Of a stretch of DNA of 5,088 nucleotides, positions 1-5,088 are shown one piece after another. Source of the stretch: a virus (lineage: Duplodnaviria > Heunggongvirae > Uroviricota > Caudoviricetes); IMG/VR virus record IMGVR_UViG_2681813320_000010, positions 1-5,088 of that record. One strand, 5' to 3'. The notes under the pieces are model-generated. The model did not search any database, was not told the origin of the DNA, and saw nothing but the letters and a program-made list of their open reading frames with translations. Each line of letters opens with the position of its first letter. Position 1 is the first letter of the stretch. The position numbers and the translations under genes were made by a program.

Positions 1-799
1 TTCCGGCATCCACATCACCAGGCCAGAGAGCGTAGGCCAGTTCGTCATCCAGTGTTTTCCATGTCTGCTTGTATTCGCGATGAATGGCAGCAATGACCAG
101 GCTGATTTTTCCTGTTGAATTTTCAGTGTGCTGTTGATTGACTCTGGCGCGGGCGAGATCAACAACAGACGTGTATTTTCCGGTTTCCTTGCGTTCACCT
201 TCGCGACGTTTTTTCCAGATGCGCATCTCTGCCTGAATTTCGGGCCATTTGGCACCAGGCTTACATTTATGCTTAACCCACCCGATGGCATGCAGCTTAA
301 GCTCCGGATACATGGCGTTAACTTCTGGCATTTTCATCAACGCTTCAACGATATGTCCGTCGAATGTTGCCATGTCTTCCTGCAACAATTCCTGTGCGCT
401 AATAACCATATCAACGGTGATGTTTTCACATGTGTCGAACTTAACCATGACAGCGTTCTGTACTTCAGGGGCCAGCTTGTCAAAAGTGACGTTCATCGGA
501 TCGGATTCAGTCTCAACCGGGACAAAGGAAGCAGACTCCTCATCCCAGCGGTTTTCCTGCATATATTCAGCATCCCAGGAATCGAGGGCAGGGCGGGGTA
601 TACCGGGTTTATCCTCGCAGACAAGAAATTTATAAGCGCAGTCCTGAGCAGCCGGATAATGTTCCAGGAATTGCCAGTGAAATTTTGCGCGGGCGCGACG
701 TTCATCACCGGCTTCAATGGCAGTGGCTACAGCGACGGCACCTTCTTCCTTTATTGCCTGTTCGTCCGGAATGGCGGCGCAAATAAAGACTTTACTCAT
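1..799 (-). CDS. Hypothetical prophage early-region protein, N-terminal 266 codons (3-prime end lies beyond the window start)
   Basis: Minus-strand frame is open from ATG at 799-797 to the window edge (manual translation, begins MSKVFICAAIPDEQAIKEEGAVAVATAIEAGDERRARAKFHWQF). Composition is acidic and protein-like. GAGGT Shine-Dalgarno lies 8 nt upstream. The track ORF 128..859 (+) is its Phe/Cys/His-rich antisense shadow. Function not recognised; position suggests a recombination or early-left module gene, which is positional inference only. Confidence 0.6.
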   Translation of the reverse strand, partial: MSKVFICAAIPDEQAIKEEGAVAVATAIEAGDERRARAKFHWQFLEHYPAAQDCAYKFLVCEDKPGIPRPALDSWDAEYMQENRWDEESASFVPVETESDPMNVTFDKLAPEVQNAVMVKFDTCENITVDMVISAQELLQEDMATFDGHIVEALMKMPEVNAMYPELKLHAIGWVKHKCKPGAKWPEIQAEMRIWKKRREGERKETGKYTSVVDLARARVNQQHTENSTGKISLVIAAIHREYKQTWKTLDDELAYALWPGDVDAG

Positions 800-891
800 T
801 TTGTTTTACCTCATTACAGATTTAAGGGTGAACAAATCCCTGCCATTGCTGGCATATAAGAATGAAACCGGATATTTATTACGGAACTGTT

Positions 892-1083
892 TTAAAGACC
901 TGCCGGGATTTCGTTATTATCCTGGTGAATAACTTTATCGACCGGGTAACAGTTACCGGGAATTTTCTGTTCTGCTGCGGCAGCCATGCATTCTTTCATT
1001 GAGTTGTACATGCCGGTGATTGCATCAAGCGACTCACCAGTATTGAGATATACAGTCAGAATGAGTATGAATAATGTGTTCAT
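892..1083 (-). CDS. Small hypothetical protein (63 aa) with hydrophobic N-terminal segment, candidate small membrane protein
   Basis: ATG at 1083-1081 preceded by GGAGAG Shine-Dalgarno (5-nt spacing); the track ORF 892..1089 starts 2 codons earlier at GTG. Product MNTLFILILTVYLNTGES... has a hydrophobic stretch at the N-terminus. Its start overlaps the stop of the upstream gene in an ATGA junction. Stop TAA at 894-892. Confidence 0.45.
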   Translation of the reverse strand: MNTLFILILTVYLNTGESLDAITGMYNSMKECMAAAAEQKIPGNCYPVDKVIHQDNNEIPAGL

Positions 1084-1268
1084 CGCCACTCTCCGAAAAT
1101 ACCGAGTTTAAGAAGGGCAATTCTGGAGAGTATGGAATTGTCATTCAGCAGGTAGGGTTCATATTTTCTCATATTGATTGCATCCTCGGTGAAATCCCTG
1201 TTACTGAGCAGAACACCAATATTAAAGCACCCGTCAGACGTATTAACGTTTGGTAGTGACGTTTCCAT
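1080..1268 (-). CDS. Small hypothetical protein (62 aa), translationally coupled to the downstream small membrane protein gene
   Basis: ATG at 1268-1266 with GAGGA Shine-Dalgarno 7 nt upstream. The longer track ORF 1080..1373 starts at GTG with no ribosome-binding site and runs through the inverted repeat, so the shorter start is preferred. Stop TGA overlaps the next ATG (ATGA). Confidence 0.4.
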   Translation of the reverse strand: METSLPNVNTSDGCFNIGVLLSNRDFTEDAINMRKYEPYLLNDNSILSRIALLKLGIFGEWR

Positions 1269-1285
1269 TATCGCGTCCTCAACAA

Positions 1286-1433
1286 TGAATTTTGTGATGC
1301 GGTGCCTGGTGCCTCCAGGTGACGTTAACCAGTTAACAATTAACGCCGGATACAGAGAATCCACCCATAACACTGTTTTTGGTTTTAACTGTTCCGCGTG
1401 CGCTCAGCCGCATTCACCACATCACAAAATTCA
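1286..1433. repeat. 19-bp imperfect inverted repeat pair bracketing a 110-bp spacer
   Basis: 1286-1304 TGAATTTTGTGATGCGGTG; 1415-1433 CACCACATCACAAAATTCA, the reverse complement with 1 mismatch (18/19). The spacer 1305-1414 holds a GGTGCCT tandem direct repeat (1301-1314), a CCTGG/CCAGG palindrome and three closely spaced TTAAC motifs (1325-1344). The left arm ends 18 nt upstream of the ATG at 1268. Confidence 0.6.
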
Positions 1434-1827
1434 CTTTAAAAAGGGCGGCAGAGCAGTCACGGAGTAAAACTGATACCGCCAAAAGTCACCAGAAAATTGA
1501 TAACAGAGGGCGTTGCAGCGGAGTTGTCACTTAAGCGTATGGTCAACCTGACAACCCGGTGTCCTCAACGGGGGAAGGAATAACCCCGCCATACTTACCG
1601 CCGCGCCATTTCGCGGAGTGCCACAACCGGAAGCGCACGGTCGAACTAAATTTAACGACACCGTACAGAGAGACCAATTTCGCCGTGCGCTTTCGCGTTA
1701 TGCCCTGACTTTTCAGGGACATATCCTTTCAGTAAACTGTCAGTGCCGGATGTTCACCCGTGTCCGGCGCACGCACTCCACCTGACCCGTGGAGAACTCC
1801 TTAATTACCAACCCTCAGGAGGGTGAA
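1434..1827. other. ORF-poor, GC-richer structured intergenic region between the plus-strand 92-aa gene and the minus-strand small-gene operon
   Basis: No ORF of 60 codons or more in any frame across about 1468-1788. By hand count about 57% GC over 1541-1700, against AT-rich flanking small genes. Hairpins: CCGCG-ccattt-CGCGG (about 1600-1616), CCCTGA-cttt-TCAGGG (1703-1718), GCCGGA-12nt-TCCGGC (about 1744-1767). GTGCGC/GCGCAC recurs four times. Weak candidate plus-strand promoter: -35 TTTTCA at 1710-1715, -10 TAAACT at 1733-1738. Confidence 0.4.
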
Positions 1828-2106
1828 ATGGATAAAAAGCAAATTGAGGCCCTGCAATCTATTATTGAAAAACAAGATGAAGCTATCAGGATTCTTTCAT
1901 ATCGCACTGATATGATACTAAATATGCTTTCTGCATTAACGGCTGCGCTTGGTGGTACAAAAACAAACGTATACCGCGAAGTTGTTATTCAACAGATAGA
2001 TAAATTTGAAAAAACCATACCAGGTATTAATGCTCATCTTGCAGAACAAGAGAAAGACCATGCTCTTATGGCAATTTCTTCAGTAGCTCTCCCGAAAGTT
2101 GAGTAG
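1828..2106 (+). CDS. Hypothetical 92-aa coiled-coil-like protein, transcribed opposite to the surrounding early-left genes
   Basis: ATG at 1828 preceded by strong AGGAGGG Shine-Dalgarno (1817-1823); the track ORF begins upstream at GTG 1789 with no ribosome-binding site. Product MDKKQIEALQSIIEKQDEAIRILSYRTDMILNMLSALTAALGG... is balanced and heptad-like. Stop TAG at 2104-2106. The 3-prime 41 nt overlap the convergent 133-aa gene. Confidence 0.5.
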   Translation: MDKKQIEALQSIIEKQDEAIRILSYRTDMILNMLSALTAALGGTKTNVYREVVIQQIDKFEKTIPGINAHLAEQEKDHALMAISSVALPKVE

Positions 2107-2467
2107 TTTTAATTGTTGTTTTGAAATAATCACTGCTTTCACATTTGAGTGATTTCATGGCAATCCAAATGCGGGCCTCTGTGCCTGCATTTGGTTCCAG
2201 TTGCTGTAGACGTTTTGCGTCTTCCAAAAGTAAGGCGATAATGTGTTTCAGCTTCTCATCATTTGCTTGATTCTTGTTTTCAGGCGAATTCTGTCCGCCG
2301 AATAGGCGCTTCTCTTCATACAGACCTATAAAGGCACGACGCACGTTACCGGATATAGTATCGATGGTTTCCTTTTCTACAGTACTCAGGTCAAGAGTCG
2401 CCAGTTGAGAGCGAACCACATTCGCTGCCATTTCCTGGAATGGCATTGGTAAATCTTTAAATTCCAT
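2066..2467 (-). CDS. Hypothetical early-left protein (133 aa)
   Basis: ATG at 2467-2465 with GAGG Shine-Dalgarno 6 nt upstream, 22 nt after the stop of the upstream 72-aa gene (operon-like). Protein-like composition (MEFKDLPMPFQEMAANVVRSQLATLDLSTVEKETIDTISG...). No family recognised. The last 13 codons overlap the plus-strand gene, so the true 3-prime end is uncertain. Confidence 0.5.
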   Translation of the reverse strand: MEFKDLPMPFQEMAANVVRSQLATLDLSTVEKETIDTISGNVRRAFIGLYEEKRLFGGQNSPENKNQANDEKLKHIIALLLEDAKRLQQLEPNAGTEARIWIAMKSLKCESSDYFKTTIKTTQLSGELLKKLP

Positions 2468-2489
2468 TATTAGCCTCGTTGGTTAGCTA

Positions 2490-2708
2490 TTAACGTGGGT
2501 ATGTAACCATTCTGGCAATGCTTAATGCCGCTGCTTTTTCCAGCCTGGTGATATCCTGCTCCAGAGCGGACAGATTTTCAGCCTGCTTAGTCCTGGCTTC
2601 ATTGGCCCATTTCAGATCCTGCGCTGCATTAATTTTCTGGCGCATCCACTCATAAAGTTCATCATCGGTATAGTCTGGCGCGATGATGACGGGTTCTCGT
2701 TTCTGCAT
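2490..2708 (-). CDS. Hypothetical small early-left protein (72 aa), predicted helical/coiled-coil
   Basis: ATG at 2708-2706 with GAGGAA Shine-Dalgarno 6 nt upstream; stop TAA at 2492-2490. Product MQKREPVIIAPDYTDDELYEWMRQKINAAQDLKWANEARTKQAENLSALEQDITRLEKAAALSIARMVTYPR is charged and helix-prone. No family recognised. Confidence 0.5.
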   Translation of the reverse strand: MQKREPVIIAPDYTDDELYEWMRQKINAAQDLKWANEARTKQAENLSALEQDITRLEKAAALSIARMVTYPR

Positions 2709-2737
2709 ACTGATTCCTCGCGGTGCTGTTTCGCTTA

Positions 2738-2866
2738 TCAGCCGTTAGATTTTGCCGAACTGGAAAGCGCCTGTTTAAATTCGTTGAAGCTGAGAGCTTC
2801 TTCGCCTTCGGCAAGACCTTCGAAGTATTCTTCGTAAGCCTTTTCCATGATTGTGTCGAAATCCAT
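2738..2866 (-). CDS. Small acidic hypothetical protein (42 aa), absent from the ORF track because it is short
   Basis: Manual translation from ATG 2866-2864 to TGA 2740-2738: MDFDTIMEKAYEEYFEGLAEGEEALSFNEFKQALSSSAKSNG. AGGTGA Shine-Dalgarno-like sequence upstream; ATG lies 1 nt after the stop of the upstream 51-aa ORF. The overlapping track ORFs 2662..2871 (-) and 2723..2920 (+) have basic or antisense-like low-complexity products and are considered shadows. Resembles the small Rac-prophage ydaF/ydaG-type genes by size and position, from memory only. Confidence 0.4.
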   Translation of the reverse strand: MDFDTIMEKAYEEYFEGLAEGEEALSFNEFKQALSSSAKSNG

Positions 2867-2867
2867 A

Positions 2868-3023
2868 TCACTCACCTGAGTTTCTTTCCAGCCAGCGACG
2901 GGCACCATTTTCGGTTTTAAACGTTTTGCTTTTGGTATACGTCATCGCGGTGAACGTACCGTCCTGGTTGGGGAACACGCCACATACCAGAGATTCGCTG
3001 TTGCCAAGATCGATAGTATCCAT
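2868..3023 (-). CDS. Small hypothetical protein (51 aa); first gene after the candidate OL/pL region (alternative upstream start at 3104 would give 78 aa)
   Basis: ATG at 3023-3021 with GAGGT Shine-Dalgarno 4 nt upstream: MDTIDLGNSESLVCGVFPNQDGTFTAMTYTKSKTFKTENGARRWLERNSGE; stop TGA 2870-2868. The track ORF extends to ATG 3104 with an N-rich hydrophobic extension of doubtful coding character. Start choice is unresolved. Confidence 0.45.
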   Translation of the reverse strand: MDTIDLGNSESLVCGVFPNQDGTFTAMTYTKSKTFKTENGARRWLERNSGE

Positions 3024-3199
3024 GCTGACCTCATTTCCCCTTAACGCCGGGGTAGCGGAACAAAAACCTGCTGCATAGTTATTAAAGTTGAACCCTGCCG
3101 TCATGTTCTTACGCCTCGGGCTGGCTACTTAACCCCTGACCACTGCCGGGTAACTCGAAGTATTGCCTGGCGTTCTGTGGGGCGGGGTGGGTTGATGAA

Positions 3200-3250
3200 T
3201 GAACAATACCACTACTATTTAATTATGTAAATAGCAGTGCTATTATCGTG
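3200..3250 (-). promoter_or_regulatory. Candidate OL/pL-like operator-promoter region for the early-left operon
   Basis: Overlapping palindromes: CTATTTA-ATTATG-TAAATAG (3215-3234) and AAATAG-CAGTG-CTATTA (3229-3245), plus a degenerate copy CAATAC-CACTA-CTATTT (3204-3220); same half-site family as the OR region. Candidate minus-strand promoter: -35 TTTACA (3229-3224), 17-nt spacer, -10 TATTGT (3206-3201). Lies between the terminator of the repressor operon and the first early-left gene. Confidence 0.4.
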
Positions 3251-3252
3251 GC

Positions 3253-3278
3253 AAGAAAAAAACCACCCGAAGGTGGTT
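3253..3278 (-). terminator. Rho-independent terminator of the repressor-antitoxin-toxin operon
   Basis: On the minus strand: 7-bp stem AACCACC/GGTGGTT with a UUCG tetraloop (plus 3261-3278), followed by a U-run (plus 3256-3260 AAAAA; transcript GGUGGUUUUUUUCUU). Begins 15 nt downstream of the toxin stop codon (3295-3293). Confidence 0.7.
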
Positions 3279-3292
3279 GTTGACAGGAAGGA

Positions 3293-3583
3293 TTAACAGG
3301 TTTTGTTTGGATACTGTCTTCGTGAGTGAACTACATTTACGATCTCGATGTTAGATGCTGTTACTCGGTAAAGTATTATGTAGTTAGGATGAGTCACTAT
3401 CTCACGAAGACTTGGAACTCTTTCGCTCGGTGGGTACAGATAAGGGTGTTCAGTAAGTGACAAAACTGATGTTTCAATGCGTATTTTTAGTCTACGTGCA
3501 GCGGGAGGGTTTTCCTTAGCAATATAGGCTACGATCTGACGTAAATCATCACGTGCAGAAGGTAGCCATAAAATGGGCAGCAT
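3293..3583 (-). CDS. parE: Type II toxin, ParE/RelE superfamily (ParE-like), 96 aa
   Basis: Product MLPILWLPSARDDLRQIVAYIAKENPPAARRLKIRIETSVLSLTEHPYLYPPSERVPSLREIVTHPNYIILYRVTASNIEIVNVVHSRRQYP shows the ParE pattern: W-x-x-x-A-x-x-DL-x-x-I-x-x-YIA, an R-x-L/I-E region, R-E/L-V/I then YRV then I-x-I-x-x-V-x-H, and a terminal RQ-x-P. ATG overlaps the upstream antitoxin stop by 1 nt (TAATG). Family assignment is from memory of ParE sequences; parE is a family-level symbol only. Confidence 0.8.
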   Translation of the reverse strand: MLPILWLPSARDDLRQIVAYIAKENPPAARRLKIRIETSVLSLTEHPYLYPPSERVPSLREIVTHPNYIILYRVTASNIEIVNVVHSRRQYPNKTC

Positions 3584-3774
3584 TACTCACTCCTGTTCGT
3601 TGCAGCTAATTGAGCAATAAGGTTTTCCATTTCAGCCATTACTTCGTCATGTGGAATTGCAGGACGGGGATCTGAGAGGCTTGCTGCCACTTTGGTTCGC
3701 AACCATTCGTTATAGCTGTTTTCTTGTTCGACTGTTTCAAATTCAGAAATTATCGGGGAAAGGGCTGTACTCAT
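3583..3774 (-). CDS. paaA: Small antitoxin (63 aa) paired with the ParE-like toxin; resembles PaaA-type antitoxins of three-component ParE systems
   Basis: ATG at 3774-3772 with GGAGG Shine-Dalgarno 7 nt upstream, 17 nt after the repressor stop; stop overlaps the toxin start. Product MSTALSPIISEFETVEQENSYNEWLRTKVAASLSDPRPAIPHDEVMAEMENLIAQLAATNRSE is small, acidic and likely disordered, typical of type II antitoxins. The PaaA-like call rests on gene order and recollection, not a search; paaA is a family-level symbol only. Confidence 0.7.
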   Translation of the reverse strand: MSTALSPIISEFETVEQENSYNEWLRTKVAASLSDPRPAIPHDEVMAEMENLIAQLAATNRSE

Positions 3775-3791
3775 GTTTTTACCTCCTCAGA

Positions 3792-4292
3792 TTAGGCGCG
3801 ACGACCCTTTTGCGCAGCTAGCCATCGCGCAACGATTTCTTCAATTGATTCTTTTTTCTCCTTCATTTCCTTAAGCATTTTCTCTTTATCTTCTTTGGGG
3901 AAAGCCCTGAACGTCTGGAGCAAATCCCGCTCCATGGGGTCTATATTAAACGGAAGTTCGTTTTCCGATTGTTCCATATCTGCAGATATAGTGACAACAT
4001 TGTCCTCCCCAGATTCTTGGGGATACATCCTTACAATTTGTAACAACTCGGCCATATCTGGTCTGATTGACTCGGGAGGAACTTGCAGCAACCCTGCGAA
4101 CTTGATAACAGCCTCAAGATTTAAAGGTGTCTGACCATTTAGATAATGGCTTACAGCTCCCTGTGTCGAAAATCCCAGAATTTCTGCCGCACGCTCTTGG
4201 GTTAACCCTAGTTGATTTTTTTTCGCCGTCCAGATTTCTTTCAGTCTCTGGGCGGCTTGCAGGTCGATCTCTGACAGGGATTTTCTTTTCAT
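3792..4292 (-). CDS. paaR: HTH (XRE/Cro-CI family) transcriptional repressor, 166 aa; CI analogue and first gene of the repressor-antitoxin-toxin operon
   Basis: N-terminal helix-turn-helix signature LTQERAAEILGFSTQGAVSHYLNGQTP. C-terminal region is Lys/Glu-rich with no recognisable LexA/S24-type autocleavage motif. Divergent from the Cro-like gene across an operator-rich 107-bp region. AAGG ribosome-binding site almost abuts the ATG, so the leader is poor. paaR is assigned by operon architecture, moderately confident. Confidence 0.8.
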   Translation of the reverse strand: MKRKSLSEIDLQAAQRLKEIWTAKKNQLGLTQERAAEILGFSTQGAVSHYLNGQTPLNLEAVIKFAGLLQVPPESIRPDMAELLQIVRMYPQESGEDNVVTISADMEQSENELPFNIDPMERDLLQTFRAFPKEDKEKMLKEMKEKKESIEEIVARWLAAQKGRRA

Positions 4293-4399
4293 ACCTTCAA
4301 TTCTAATAAGATTATTAATCTCTTTGAAATAGTGATGCTATTTACTTTTAAAAATAACAATGCTATTAATGATCGTGATGACATCACATGAGGTGAACA
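4293..4399. promoter_or_regulatory. Candidate OR-like divergent operator-promoter region between repressor and Cro-like gene
   Basis: Two 17-bp palindromic sites spaced 25 bp centre to centre: AAATAG-TGATG-CTATTT (4327-4343) and AAATAA-CAATG-CTATTA (4352-4368). A separate perfect palindrome GTGATG-a-CATCAC (4375-4387) sits just before the GAGGTG Shine-Dalgarno of the Cro-like gene. Candidate rightward promoter: -35 TTTACT (4341-4346), -10 TATTAA (4364-4369), overlapping the operators. Confidence 0.55.
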
Positions 4400-4675
4400 A
4401 TGAATCTTGGAGAATATTTGCATCATTCCGGTATAACTCAGAAGCATTTTGCTGAAATTGTTGGGGTAACCCAAGGGATGGTAAGCCATGTCATTACCGG
4501 ACGGGCGAAACTTACGGGGAAAAAAATTTTACGCTGGTGCGAAGCAACAGGCTGGATAGTAACTCCGCACGAGATTGATGGCAGTACTTATCCCAACCCA
4601 ACCGACGGCTTACCTGTCGAGTATCAGGCTAACACACAACCAGAGGCGGGGGTGATTCATGAAAATCAAGCATGA
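4400..4675 (+). CDS. ydaS: Cro-like HTH DNA-binding protein, YdaS-type (91 aa)
   Basis: ATG at 4400 with GAGGTG Shine-Dalgarno 4 nt upstream. HTH signature ITQKHFAEIVGVTQGMVSHVITG. Divergent from the repressor and followed by an overlapping YdaT-like gene, the arrangement of the Rac-type ydaS-ydaT pair. Assignment from motif and synteny. Confidence 0.75.
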   Translation: MNLGEYLHHSGITQKHFAEIVGVTQGMVSHVITGRAKLTGKKILRWCEATGWIVTPHEIDGSTYPNPTDGLPVEYQANTQPEAGVIHENQA

Positions 4676-5084
4676 ACACATCCGCATGGCAATGAATGCC
4701 TGGGCGCATCCGGACGGCGAAAAAGTACCGGCTGCGAAAATTACCAAAGCGTATTTCGAGCTGGGAATGACGTTCCCGGAACTGTATGACGACAGCCATC
4801 CGGAAGCCCTGGCCCGTAATACCCAGAAAATTTTCCGTTGGCTGGATAAAGACACCCCTGATGCTGTTGAAAAAATGCAGGCTCTGTTACCGGCGATCGA
4901 AAAGGCGATGCCGCCTTTGCTGGTGGCCCGTATGCGCAGCCACAGTTCTGAATATTACCGTGAGATCGTCGAACGGAGGGATCGGCTGGTGAAGGATGTC
5001 GATGATTTTGTTGCGTCAGCGGTTGTTTTGTATGACCAGATGAATCGCGGCGGCCCGGCAGGGAATGCTGTGGTGATGCACTAA
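4659..5084 (+). CDS. ydaT: YdaT-like protein (141 aa), CII analogue of Rac-type immunity regions
   Basis: Begins MKIKHEHI, which I recall as the N-terminus of Rac-prophage YdaT. Overlaps the 3-prime end of the Cro-like gene by 17 nt in another frame. G-rich ribosome-binding site (GGGGGTG) upstream. Stop TAA 5082-5084. Assignment from recollection and synteny. Confidence 0.75.
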   Translation: MKIKHEHIRMAMNAWAHPDGEKVPAAKITKAYFELGMTFPELYDDSHPEALARNTQKIFRWLDKDTPDAVEKMQALLPAIEKAMPPLLVARMRSHSSEYYREIVERRDRLVKDVDDFVASAVVLYDQMNRGGPAGNAVVMH

Positions 5085-5088
5085 AAGC

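Follow-up and report, generated by a model that had tools for sequence, protein, structure and literature searches.

The overlap of a cro-like gene and ydaT in a probable Escherichia coli lambdoid prophage immunity region appears to be one of several forms of a conserved joint

Results

Genes of the window

The window, i.e. the whole stretch of DNA analysed here (5,088 nt; positions 1 to 5,088 of IMG/VR record IMGVR_UViG_2681813320_000010), carries the following genes in its right-hand part:

3293-3583, minus strand: gene for a ParE-family toxin (96 aa; PF05016, E 6.6e-18)
3583-3774, minus strand: gene for a PaaA-type antitoxin (63 aa; PF21217 PaaA2, E 1e-21), overlapping parE by 1 nt
3792-4292, minus strand: prophage repressor gene (166 aa; HTH_3)
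4400-4675, plus strand: gene for an HTH regulator in the Cro position (91 aa; HTH_3, E 9e-6; phrog_35)
4659-5084, plus strand: ydaT, encoding a CII functional analogue (141 aa; POU-like HTH domain and tetramerisation helix)

In the ORF list of the window, both rightward genes are initiated by ATG, and the cro-like gene ends with a TGA stop codon at 4673-4675. As described in the initial annotation, both ORFs are present and share 17 nt (4659-4675), which are read in different frames. RefSeq annotates both CDSs identically on identical DNA of E. coli O104:H4 (7201-7476 and 7460-7885 of our locus L002). Over its right-hand 1.9 kb (3200-5088), the window matches prophage DNA of E. coli O104:H4 and of other strains with 100% identity. 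An exact copy of the whole 5-kb window was absent among complete E. coli genomes, and the best match to it has 99.0% identity in two pieces, which fits a mosaic lambdoid prophage. Positions 1-3200 lack co-linearity with the O104:H4 prophage to which 3200-5088 is an exact match; this part carries small prophage genes, i.e. a DUF1391/ydfA-like gene at 2868-3104 and further ORFs that match phrog_2061, phrog_1744, phrog_1363 and phrog_18692, which are of unknown function.

Homology searches confirmed the YdaT-like identity of the downstream gene product. It matches Pfam PF06254 (40.9 bits versus a cut-off of 21) and phrog_163, 'CII-like transcriptional activator' (E 3e-48), and is identical at 139 of 140 positions to the crystallised YdaT of prophage CP-933P of E. 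coli O157:H7 (PDB 8BT1); it is also similar to PDB 3C4R, and 31% identical to Rac YdaT of K-12. R60 and W61 are present in the translation, Arg60 being a conserved residue of the recognition helix. The 139/140 identity indicates that the protein shares the fold and the tetramer of the crystallised one. A search of NCBIfam gave no model matching YdaT.

The upstream gene lies between the repressor gene and ydaT and is divergent from the former, i.e. it occupies the position of cro. Its product had no match to PF15943 (YdaS family/COG4197) even at E≤10, while the same run returned YdaS of CP-933P (3e-12) and of Rac (3e-31), and it is 27% identical to CP-933P YdaS. Together, the lack of a PF15943 match and the low identity argue that the protein is a Cro analogue by position and not a YdaS homologue. 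Thus, the earlier description of a ydaS/ydaT-type pair with a 'Cro-like' first member is correct in that there is an HTH protein in the Cro position, and incorrect in that this protein is not YdaS. The history attached to that description, in which the ydaS/ydaT pair was proposed as a toxin-antitoxin pair and later reinterpreted as Cro/CII analogues, agrees with the literature (PMC8630535, PMC5917428).

From its sequence, the repressor appears to be a chimera of a lambda-CI-like N-terminal domain and a PaaR2/DicA-like C-terminal segment of 44 aa: the N-terminal 90 residues resemble the DNA-binding domain of lambda CI (E 1e-9), the C-terminal 44 aa are 55% identical to CP-933P PaaR2, and the C terminus resembles that of DicA (E 1.5e-7). 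The repressor has no S24 peptidase domain and, lacking this autocleavage domain, is probably not SOS-inducible. In printed PDB alignments, the ParE protein is ~70% identical to ParE2 of PDB 5CW7, and the antitoxin matches PaaA2 of PDB 3ZBE over residues 3-56 with ~70% identity; with the PF05016 and PF21217 matches, these identities bear out the genuine ParE toxin module that had been proposed. As in paaR-paaA-parE systems, whose antitoxin has no DNA-binding domain, a ParE-fold toxin, a PaaA-type antitoxin and a separate upstream regulator gene lie in the same operon, and the regulator shares with PaaR2 only its C-terminal 44 aa. By homology, we regard the repressor and the PaaA/ParE pair as diverged relatives of PaaR2-PaaA2-ParE2. 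Just after parE and before the OL-like operators described below, the minus strand has a strong terminator-like hairpin at 3261-3278 (AACCACCTTCGGGTGGTT) followed by a T run.

Operators and promoters

The following candidate regulatory sites were found around the leftward operon:

3205-3219 and 3230-3244, unstranded: second pair of the operator motif (25 bp apart), downstream of parE, where it covers a PL-like promoter that points leftward
4300-4328, minus strand: PRM-like promoter TTCAAA-17-TAGAAT (promoter scan)
4328-4342 (AATAGTGATGCTATT) and 4353-4367 (AATAACAATGCTATT), unstranded: intergenic pair of operator-like pseudo-palindromes, 25 bp apart

The 15-bp pseudo-palindrome AATAGYRRTGCTATT is present in four copies that form two pairs, and its motif has six matches versus 0.17 expected by chance. 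By their sequence and arrangement, the pairs resemble OR and OL, here with a new immunity specificity. The PRM-like promoter ends 7 nt before the repressor ATG (4292); its predicted start is at or next to this ATG, and therefore a leaderless repressor mRNA is predicted. Leaderless mRNAs have been described for paaR2 and cI (PMC8630535). The intergenic region between the repressor gene and the cro-like gene is 107 bp. Because the operators are unlike GTTTAGTAA of CP-933P and the intergenic region there is 97 bp, we conclude that the locus is of a different immunity type from CP-933P. That the locus is CP-933P itself was ruled out by the same differences and by the N terminus of the repressor, which is MQKKE in PaaR2 and MKRKSL here. 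Finally, the stretch that separates the PR-like -10 region from the cro SD holds a perfect palindrome at 4375-4387 (GTGATGACATCAC), which might be a further operator or form a hairpin in the 5' UTR.

In 4400-4760, there was no leftward sigma-70-like promoter scoring ≥9/12 that could be the equivalent of PRE. A relaxed leftward-promoter scan gave weak candidates only, e.g. CAGCCT-17-TAAAAT at 4554-4526.

The cro/ydaT joint and the YdaT box

The region in which the cro-like gene and ydaT meet contains the following features:

4643-4653, plus strand: ydaT Shine-Dalgarno (SD) region GAGGCGGGGG, inside the cro-like CDS
4646-4685, plus strand: predicted mRNA hairpin
4652-4669, unstranded: YdaT box/OM operator GTGATT-CATGAA-AATCAA, with the ydaT ATG in the spacer
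4653-4675, plus strand: mosaic joint TGATTCATGAAAATCAAGCATGA, 23 bp long and conserved, in which each of the three frames has a TGA
4659-4675, plus strand: overlap of the cro-like gene and ydaT
4688-4713, unstranded: counterpart of the weak CP-933P YdaT site 'OL' GGCAATGAATGCCTGGGCGCATCCGG

The TGA codons of the joint are located at 4653, 4660 and 4673, i.e. at -6, +2 and +15 when counted from the ATG of ydaT. The last six codons (IHENQA) and the stop codon of the cro-like gene are encoded by this joint, which belongs to the conserved ydaT module.

Footprinting placed CP-933P YdaT on OM, a TTGATT-N6-AATCAA repeat located where ydaS ends (Prolic-Kalinsek et al. 2023, PMC9986795), and the OM oligonucleotide used in that work is the reverse complement of ATGGAGTTGATTCATGAAAATCAAGCATGA, i.e. 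of the ydaS/ydaT joint. In the Rac YdaT box (ATGATTCATGAAAATCAA), the ATG of the spacer serves as the initiation codon of ydaT (PMC11879457). The sequence GTGATTCATGAAAATCAA at 4652-4669 has one mismatch to the TTGATT-N6-AATCAA repeat, a G for T at the first position, which places the 17-nt overlap inside the YdaT operator region. A search of the window for the perfect repeat gave no site, and the four other sites with at most three mismatches are at chance level. The match to the published operator suggests that YdaT would bind the box at 4652-4669. The counterpart of the OL site, the sequence of which was taken from the supplement of PMC9986795, is identical at 24 of 26 positions when compared by eye; the third and weak YdaT site, OR, which is located in ydaS of CP-933P, has no counterpart here.

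Mosaic boundary and junction forms

A megablast search with 4400-5088 against 5,426 complete E. coli genomes gave matches in about 3,060 of them; among the matches listed, most begin at query position 254, i.e. at position 4653 of the window. In an alignment of five immunity types, the sequences are unrelated up to 4653 and nearly identical from TGATTCATG onward. We conclude that this breakpoint is a mosaic boundary: to its left lies an exchangeable cassette with the repressor gene, the operators and cro, and to its right the conserved ydaT module. Some megablast matches begin at query positions 183-190 instead of 254, and the C-terminal segment of the Cro-like protein encoded at 4550-4640, VTPHE(I/L)RPD.YPNPTDGLP...QANTQ, is common to loci L060, L081, L092, L109 and L116 despite unrelated N-terminal HTH halves. 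The common C-terminal segment next to unrelated N-terminal halves points to another mosaic boundary, located within cro.

We surveyed at least 119 IMG/VR loci with the joint together with E. coli loci; 124 loci had enough upstream DNA. The sample is dominated by E. coli prophages, and the counts are those of sequences and not of independent events. Relative to the ydaT ATG, the cro-like gene ends as follows in the loci listed:

+17 nt (overlap): 44 loci, tail ...IHENQ(A/T)
+4 nt (ATGA overlap): 65 loci, tail ...DS
-3 nt (gap): 1 locus
-22 nt (gap): 13 loci, Rac K-12 type

In each of the 124 loci listed, the end of the upstream gene lies either inside this same joint or 22 nt ahead of it, and the overlap is therefore not a chance ORF artefact. 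Among these loci, 47 distinct Cro-like proteins fall into seven families, and three of the seven hold two junction states. The closest Cro relative of the window among the loci listed, from L047 (87 aa, ending in ...GVDS), has the 4-nt overlap; this locus differs from the window by a 1-nt indel immediately left of TGATTC, and the indel also gives a perfect TTGATT half-site. The 17-nt overlap and the IHENQA tail thus follow from the frame in which the cro allele enters the joint and not from a conserved design. In total, the sequence comparisons indicate that the 17-nt overlap is a reading-frame accident and one of several interchangeable forms of the joint.

In a scan of genome contigs, all matches to the joint were from Escherichia or Shigella, apart from two contigs of MAGs. 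The latter are short contigs with the exact joint assigned to 'Candidatus Nanosynbacter' (L129) and 'Collinsella' (L130), and they most likely represent binning contamination. In one IMG/VR locus (L050) with a Cro-like protein of the 71-aa family, the cro-like ORF has only 47 aa and ends at the ATGA joint; it could be a truncated gene or have an alternative start.

Expression of ydaT

No promoter-like or terminator-like site was predicted between the cro-like gene and ydaT, and no terminator-like site in 4400-5088. Moreover, because the two genes overlap, there is no intergenic space for an equivalent of nutR/tR1. In Rac, RT-PCR detected a bicistronic ydaS-ydaT mRNA, and ydaT has no separate promoter (PMC11879457). 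The lack of a site between the genes and the Rac result together point to co-transcription of the cro-like gene and ydaT from the PR-like promoter, which we regard as near certain. Thus, the coupled expression that had been deduced from the overlap holds in the transcriptional sense.

The ydaT SD region is predicted to pair with the anti-SD with -11.8 kcal/mol. An SD is present in 30 of 30 distinct junction variants, with a mean of -6.9 versus -2.6 for background windows inside cro-like genes. That it is kept in cro 3' ends that are otherwise non-homologous argues that ydaT initiation is under selection. In the predicted mRNA hairpin, UCCGC is the partner of the SD segment GCGGG, and CAUGAA, which holds the cro stop codon, is that of UUCAUG of ydaT. 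RNA folding of 4620-4700 gave a dG of -21.4 kcal/mol and a modest z of -2.19. The core stem of the hairpin recurs in most variants, and the AUG is predicted to be paired in most of them. In a covariation test with 45 junction variants, the core stem was invariant and alifold kept only that stem; being invariant, the stem makes covariation uninformative either way. The layout is that of coupled pairs, in that the stop and start codons overlap and the SD lies inside the upstream gene. Based on these predictions, translational coupling by ribosome-mediated unfolding of the hairpin is plausible; such coupling would serve the 4-nt form equally well.

Alternative explanations of the overlap and of YdaT function

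The overlap would disappear if it were an annotation artefact, with the true ydaT start downstream at ATG 4686 or 4692 and the two genes not overlapping. Indeed, ydaT has in-frame ATGs at codons 10 and 12. However, the N terminus MKIKHEHI is conserved even in the 31%-identical Rac YdaT; the start at 4659 is the same as in the constructs of PDB 3C4R and 8BT1, and YdaT is ordered from residue 2 on in the crystallised constructs; the SD is spaced for 4659; and the footprint paper on Rac names the corresponding ATG as the initiation codon (PMC11879457). We hold a downstream start to be almost certainly wrong, and the earlier placement of the ydaT start at 4659, inside the 3' end of the cro-like gene, is backed by the conserved N terminus, the crystallised constructs and the SD placement. 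Given the start at 4659, the 17-nt overlap could also be a selected coupling device, by which YdaT synthesis would require translation of the Cro-like protein and scale with it. Several points speak for such a device: the SD and AUG of ydaT are situated within cro, this AUG is paired with the cro stop region in the predicted hairpin, which terminating ribosomes would open, and a paired AUG is predicted for most variants. By contrast, the length of the overlap varies: within one Cro family there are overlaps of 4 nt and of 17 nt, a 1-nt indel apart, Rac of K-12 has a 22-nt gap, and one locus has a 3-nt gap. Moreover, the SD is strong enough for independent initiation, and the 3' arm of the hairpin is part of the invariant ydaT module, and therefore the hairpin exists wherever cro stops. 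Altogether, we consider selection of the 17-nt overlap as a coupling device unlikely and favour the reading-frame accident.

A different question is whether the Cro-like protein and YdaT form a toxin-antitoxin module, or whether YdaT is a second growth inhibitor beside ParE. The names in Pfam and RefSeq ('Bacterial toxin ydaT', 'toxin YdaT family protein') suggest this, as does the filamentation and death that follow induction of Rac YdaT (PMC11879457). However, CP-933P YdaT, which differs from the protein here by one residue, is not toxic, and the CP-933P pair is not a toxin-antitoxin system (PMC8630535). Rac YdaT is only 31% identical and exerts its toxicity via the host promoter rcsA and not as a toxin of a toxin-antitoxin system (PMC11879457). 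Moreover, the upstream protein is not a member of the YdaS family. We therefore regard a toxic function of YdaT or of the pair as highly improbable. The activity of CP-933P ParE2 was undetected even with the operon on (PMC8630535), and the parE operon and ydaT are on opposite, mutually exclusive arms of the bistable switch. The non-toxic CP-933P YdaT, the undetected ParE2 activity and the opposite arms leave little weight to the earlier suggestion that two growth-inhibitory functions are wired to the same operators. We favour that YdaT here is a CII analogue.

Discussion

In CP-933P, PaaR2, YdaS and YdaT are analogues of CI, Cro and CII (Jurenas et al. 2021, PMC8630535); YdaT turns on the leftward promoter PRE933P at the ydaS/ydaT border, and the locus is bistable (PMC8630535). 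The locus described here has the same gene order and orientation as CP-933P/Sp12 of E. coli O157:H7 and shares with it YdaT (139/140), a YdaT operator at the cro/ydaT joint, a PaaA/ParE pair behind the repressor gene and a repressor C-terminal domain that is 55% identical. Moreover, a PRM of the leaderless type is predicted here, as is a PL-like promoter with the same operator motif downstream of parE, which is analogous to PL933P (PMC8630535). By contrast, the N-terminal domain of the repressor is lambda-CI-like, with a total length of 166 aa versus 123 aa; the Cro protein is of the HTH_3 type and not YdaS (27%); the operators are AATAGYRRTGCTATT and not GTTTAGTAA, in an intergenic region of 107 bp versus 97 bp; PaaA and ParE are only ~70% identical; the cro/ydaT overlap is 17 nt versus 4 nt; the first position of the box is a G; and the weak site in ydaS is missing.

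With the racR-ydaS-ydaT locus of Rac in K-12, the locus shares the 23-bp joint and the YdaT box around the ydaT ATG (PMC11879457, PMC5700373, PMC5917428). One bicistronic rightward mRNA and a YdaT that activates a reverse promoter towards the repressor gene, both established for Rac, are predicted here as well; in Rac, this promoter is activated 29-fold through the YdaT box (PMC11879457). However, in Rac the repressor is RacR, a ParE module is missing, YdaT has 31% identity to the protein here and exerts toxicity via rcsA, and a 22-nt gap separates the end of ydaS from ydaT.

As in the cI-cro-cII region of lambda, there is a divergent PRM/PR pair with common operators and a predicted leaderless repressor mRNA; downstream of cro lies the gene of an activator that would bind where its own gene begins and turn on an establishment promoter directed leftward, antisense to cro. 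Lambda differs in that nutR and tR1 lie between cro and cII, so that cII needs N antitermination, while there is no such interval here. Moreover, the repressor here has no RecA-sensitive S24 domain, a toxin-antitoxin pair replaces rexAB, and YdaT, a POU-like tetramer, is unrelated in fold to CII. Finally, the joint resembles coupled overlapping gene pairs of bacteria, of the ATGA type and longer, in which the stop codon is a few codons from the start codon and the SD is inside the upstream gene. Unlike in such pairs, the length of the overlap toggles freely between relatives, and it is thus not itself under selection.

In total, the window very probably contains a lambdoid immunity region from an E. 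coli prophage, related to that of CP-933P and hetero-immune, with a switch deduced from homology, in which the overlap is the joint between the cassette and the ydaT module. We suggest that this switch would work as follows. The leftward operon encodes the repressor, the PaaA antitoxin and the ParE toxin, and the rightward operon the Cro-like protein and YdaT. The joint TGATTCATGAAAATCAAGCATGA contains the ydaT start codon and a TGA in each frame and would be a high-affinity YdaT operator, and because of these stop codons any recombined cro allele terminates there. Depending on its frame, such an allele leaves a gap of 3 nt or an overlap of 4 or 17 nt; the window has the +2 frame, which gives the IHENQA end. 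The PR-like promoter would generate a single cro-ydaT mRNA from which ydaT would be translated using its own strong SD inside cro, probably helped by ribosomes finishing cro, which would melt the hairpin in which the cro stop region is base-paired to the SD and AUG. Tetramers of YdaT would then bind the box over the start codon of their own gene and activate a PRE-type leftward promoter, as judged from CP-933P and Rac, and the resulting transcript would run antisense through cro into the repressor-paaA-parE operon.

Tentatively, selection might have shaped the joint into a 'universal adaptor' through which lambdoid prophages of Escherichia exchange modules, a reading that we consider possible rather than probable. 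As such, it may combine the YdaT operator, the ydaT start, stops in three frames and the hairpin that pairs start and stop. If so, recombination could attach any immunity cassette to ydaT, with termination of cro, translation of ydaT and feedback by YdaT automatically preserved. We found no explicit description of the joint as an adaptor in the papers on CP-933P and Rac consulted here.

The circuit, i.e. a CI-like repressor, a Cro analogue, YdaT as CII, an embedded ParE pair and a box over the start codon, is already established for CP-933P and Rac. The wiring of the switch is not new, having been published for CP-933P, and the value of the locus as a discovery is small because the circuit is known experimentally in both prophages. 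The allele is, as judged by homology, a natural hetero-immune version of the PaaR-PaaA-ParE switch in which the repressor's DNA-binding domain, the Cro protein and the operators are different and YdaT is the same. With these different specificity parts and the same YdaT, it would be a ready-made specificity-swap control for the published system. Moreover, the survey indicates that the ydaT module supplies the stop codon of cro and that the length of the overlap is an accident of frame. Altogether, these observations call for caution in assigning a function to such overlaps and in using the annotation 'toxin YdaT'.
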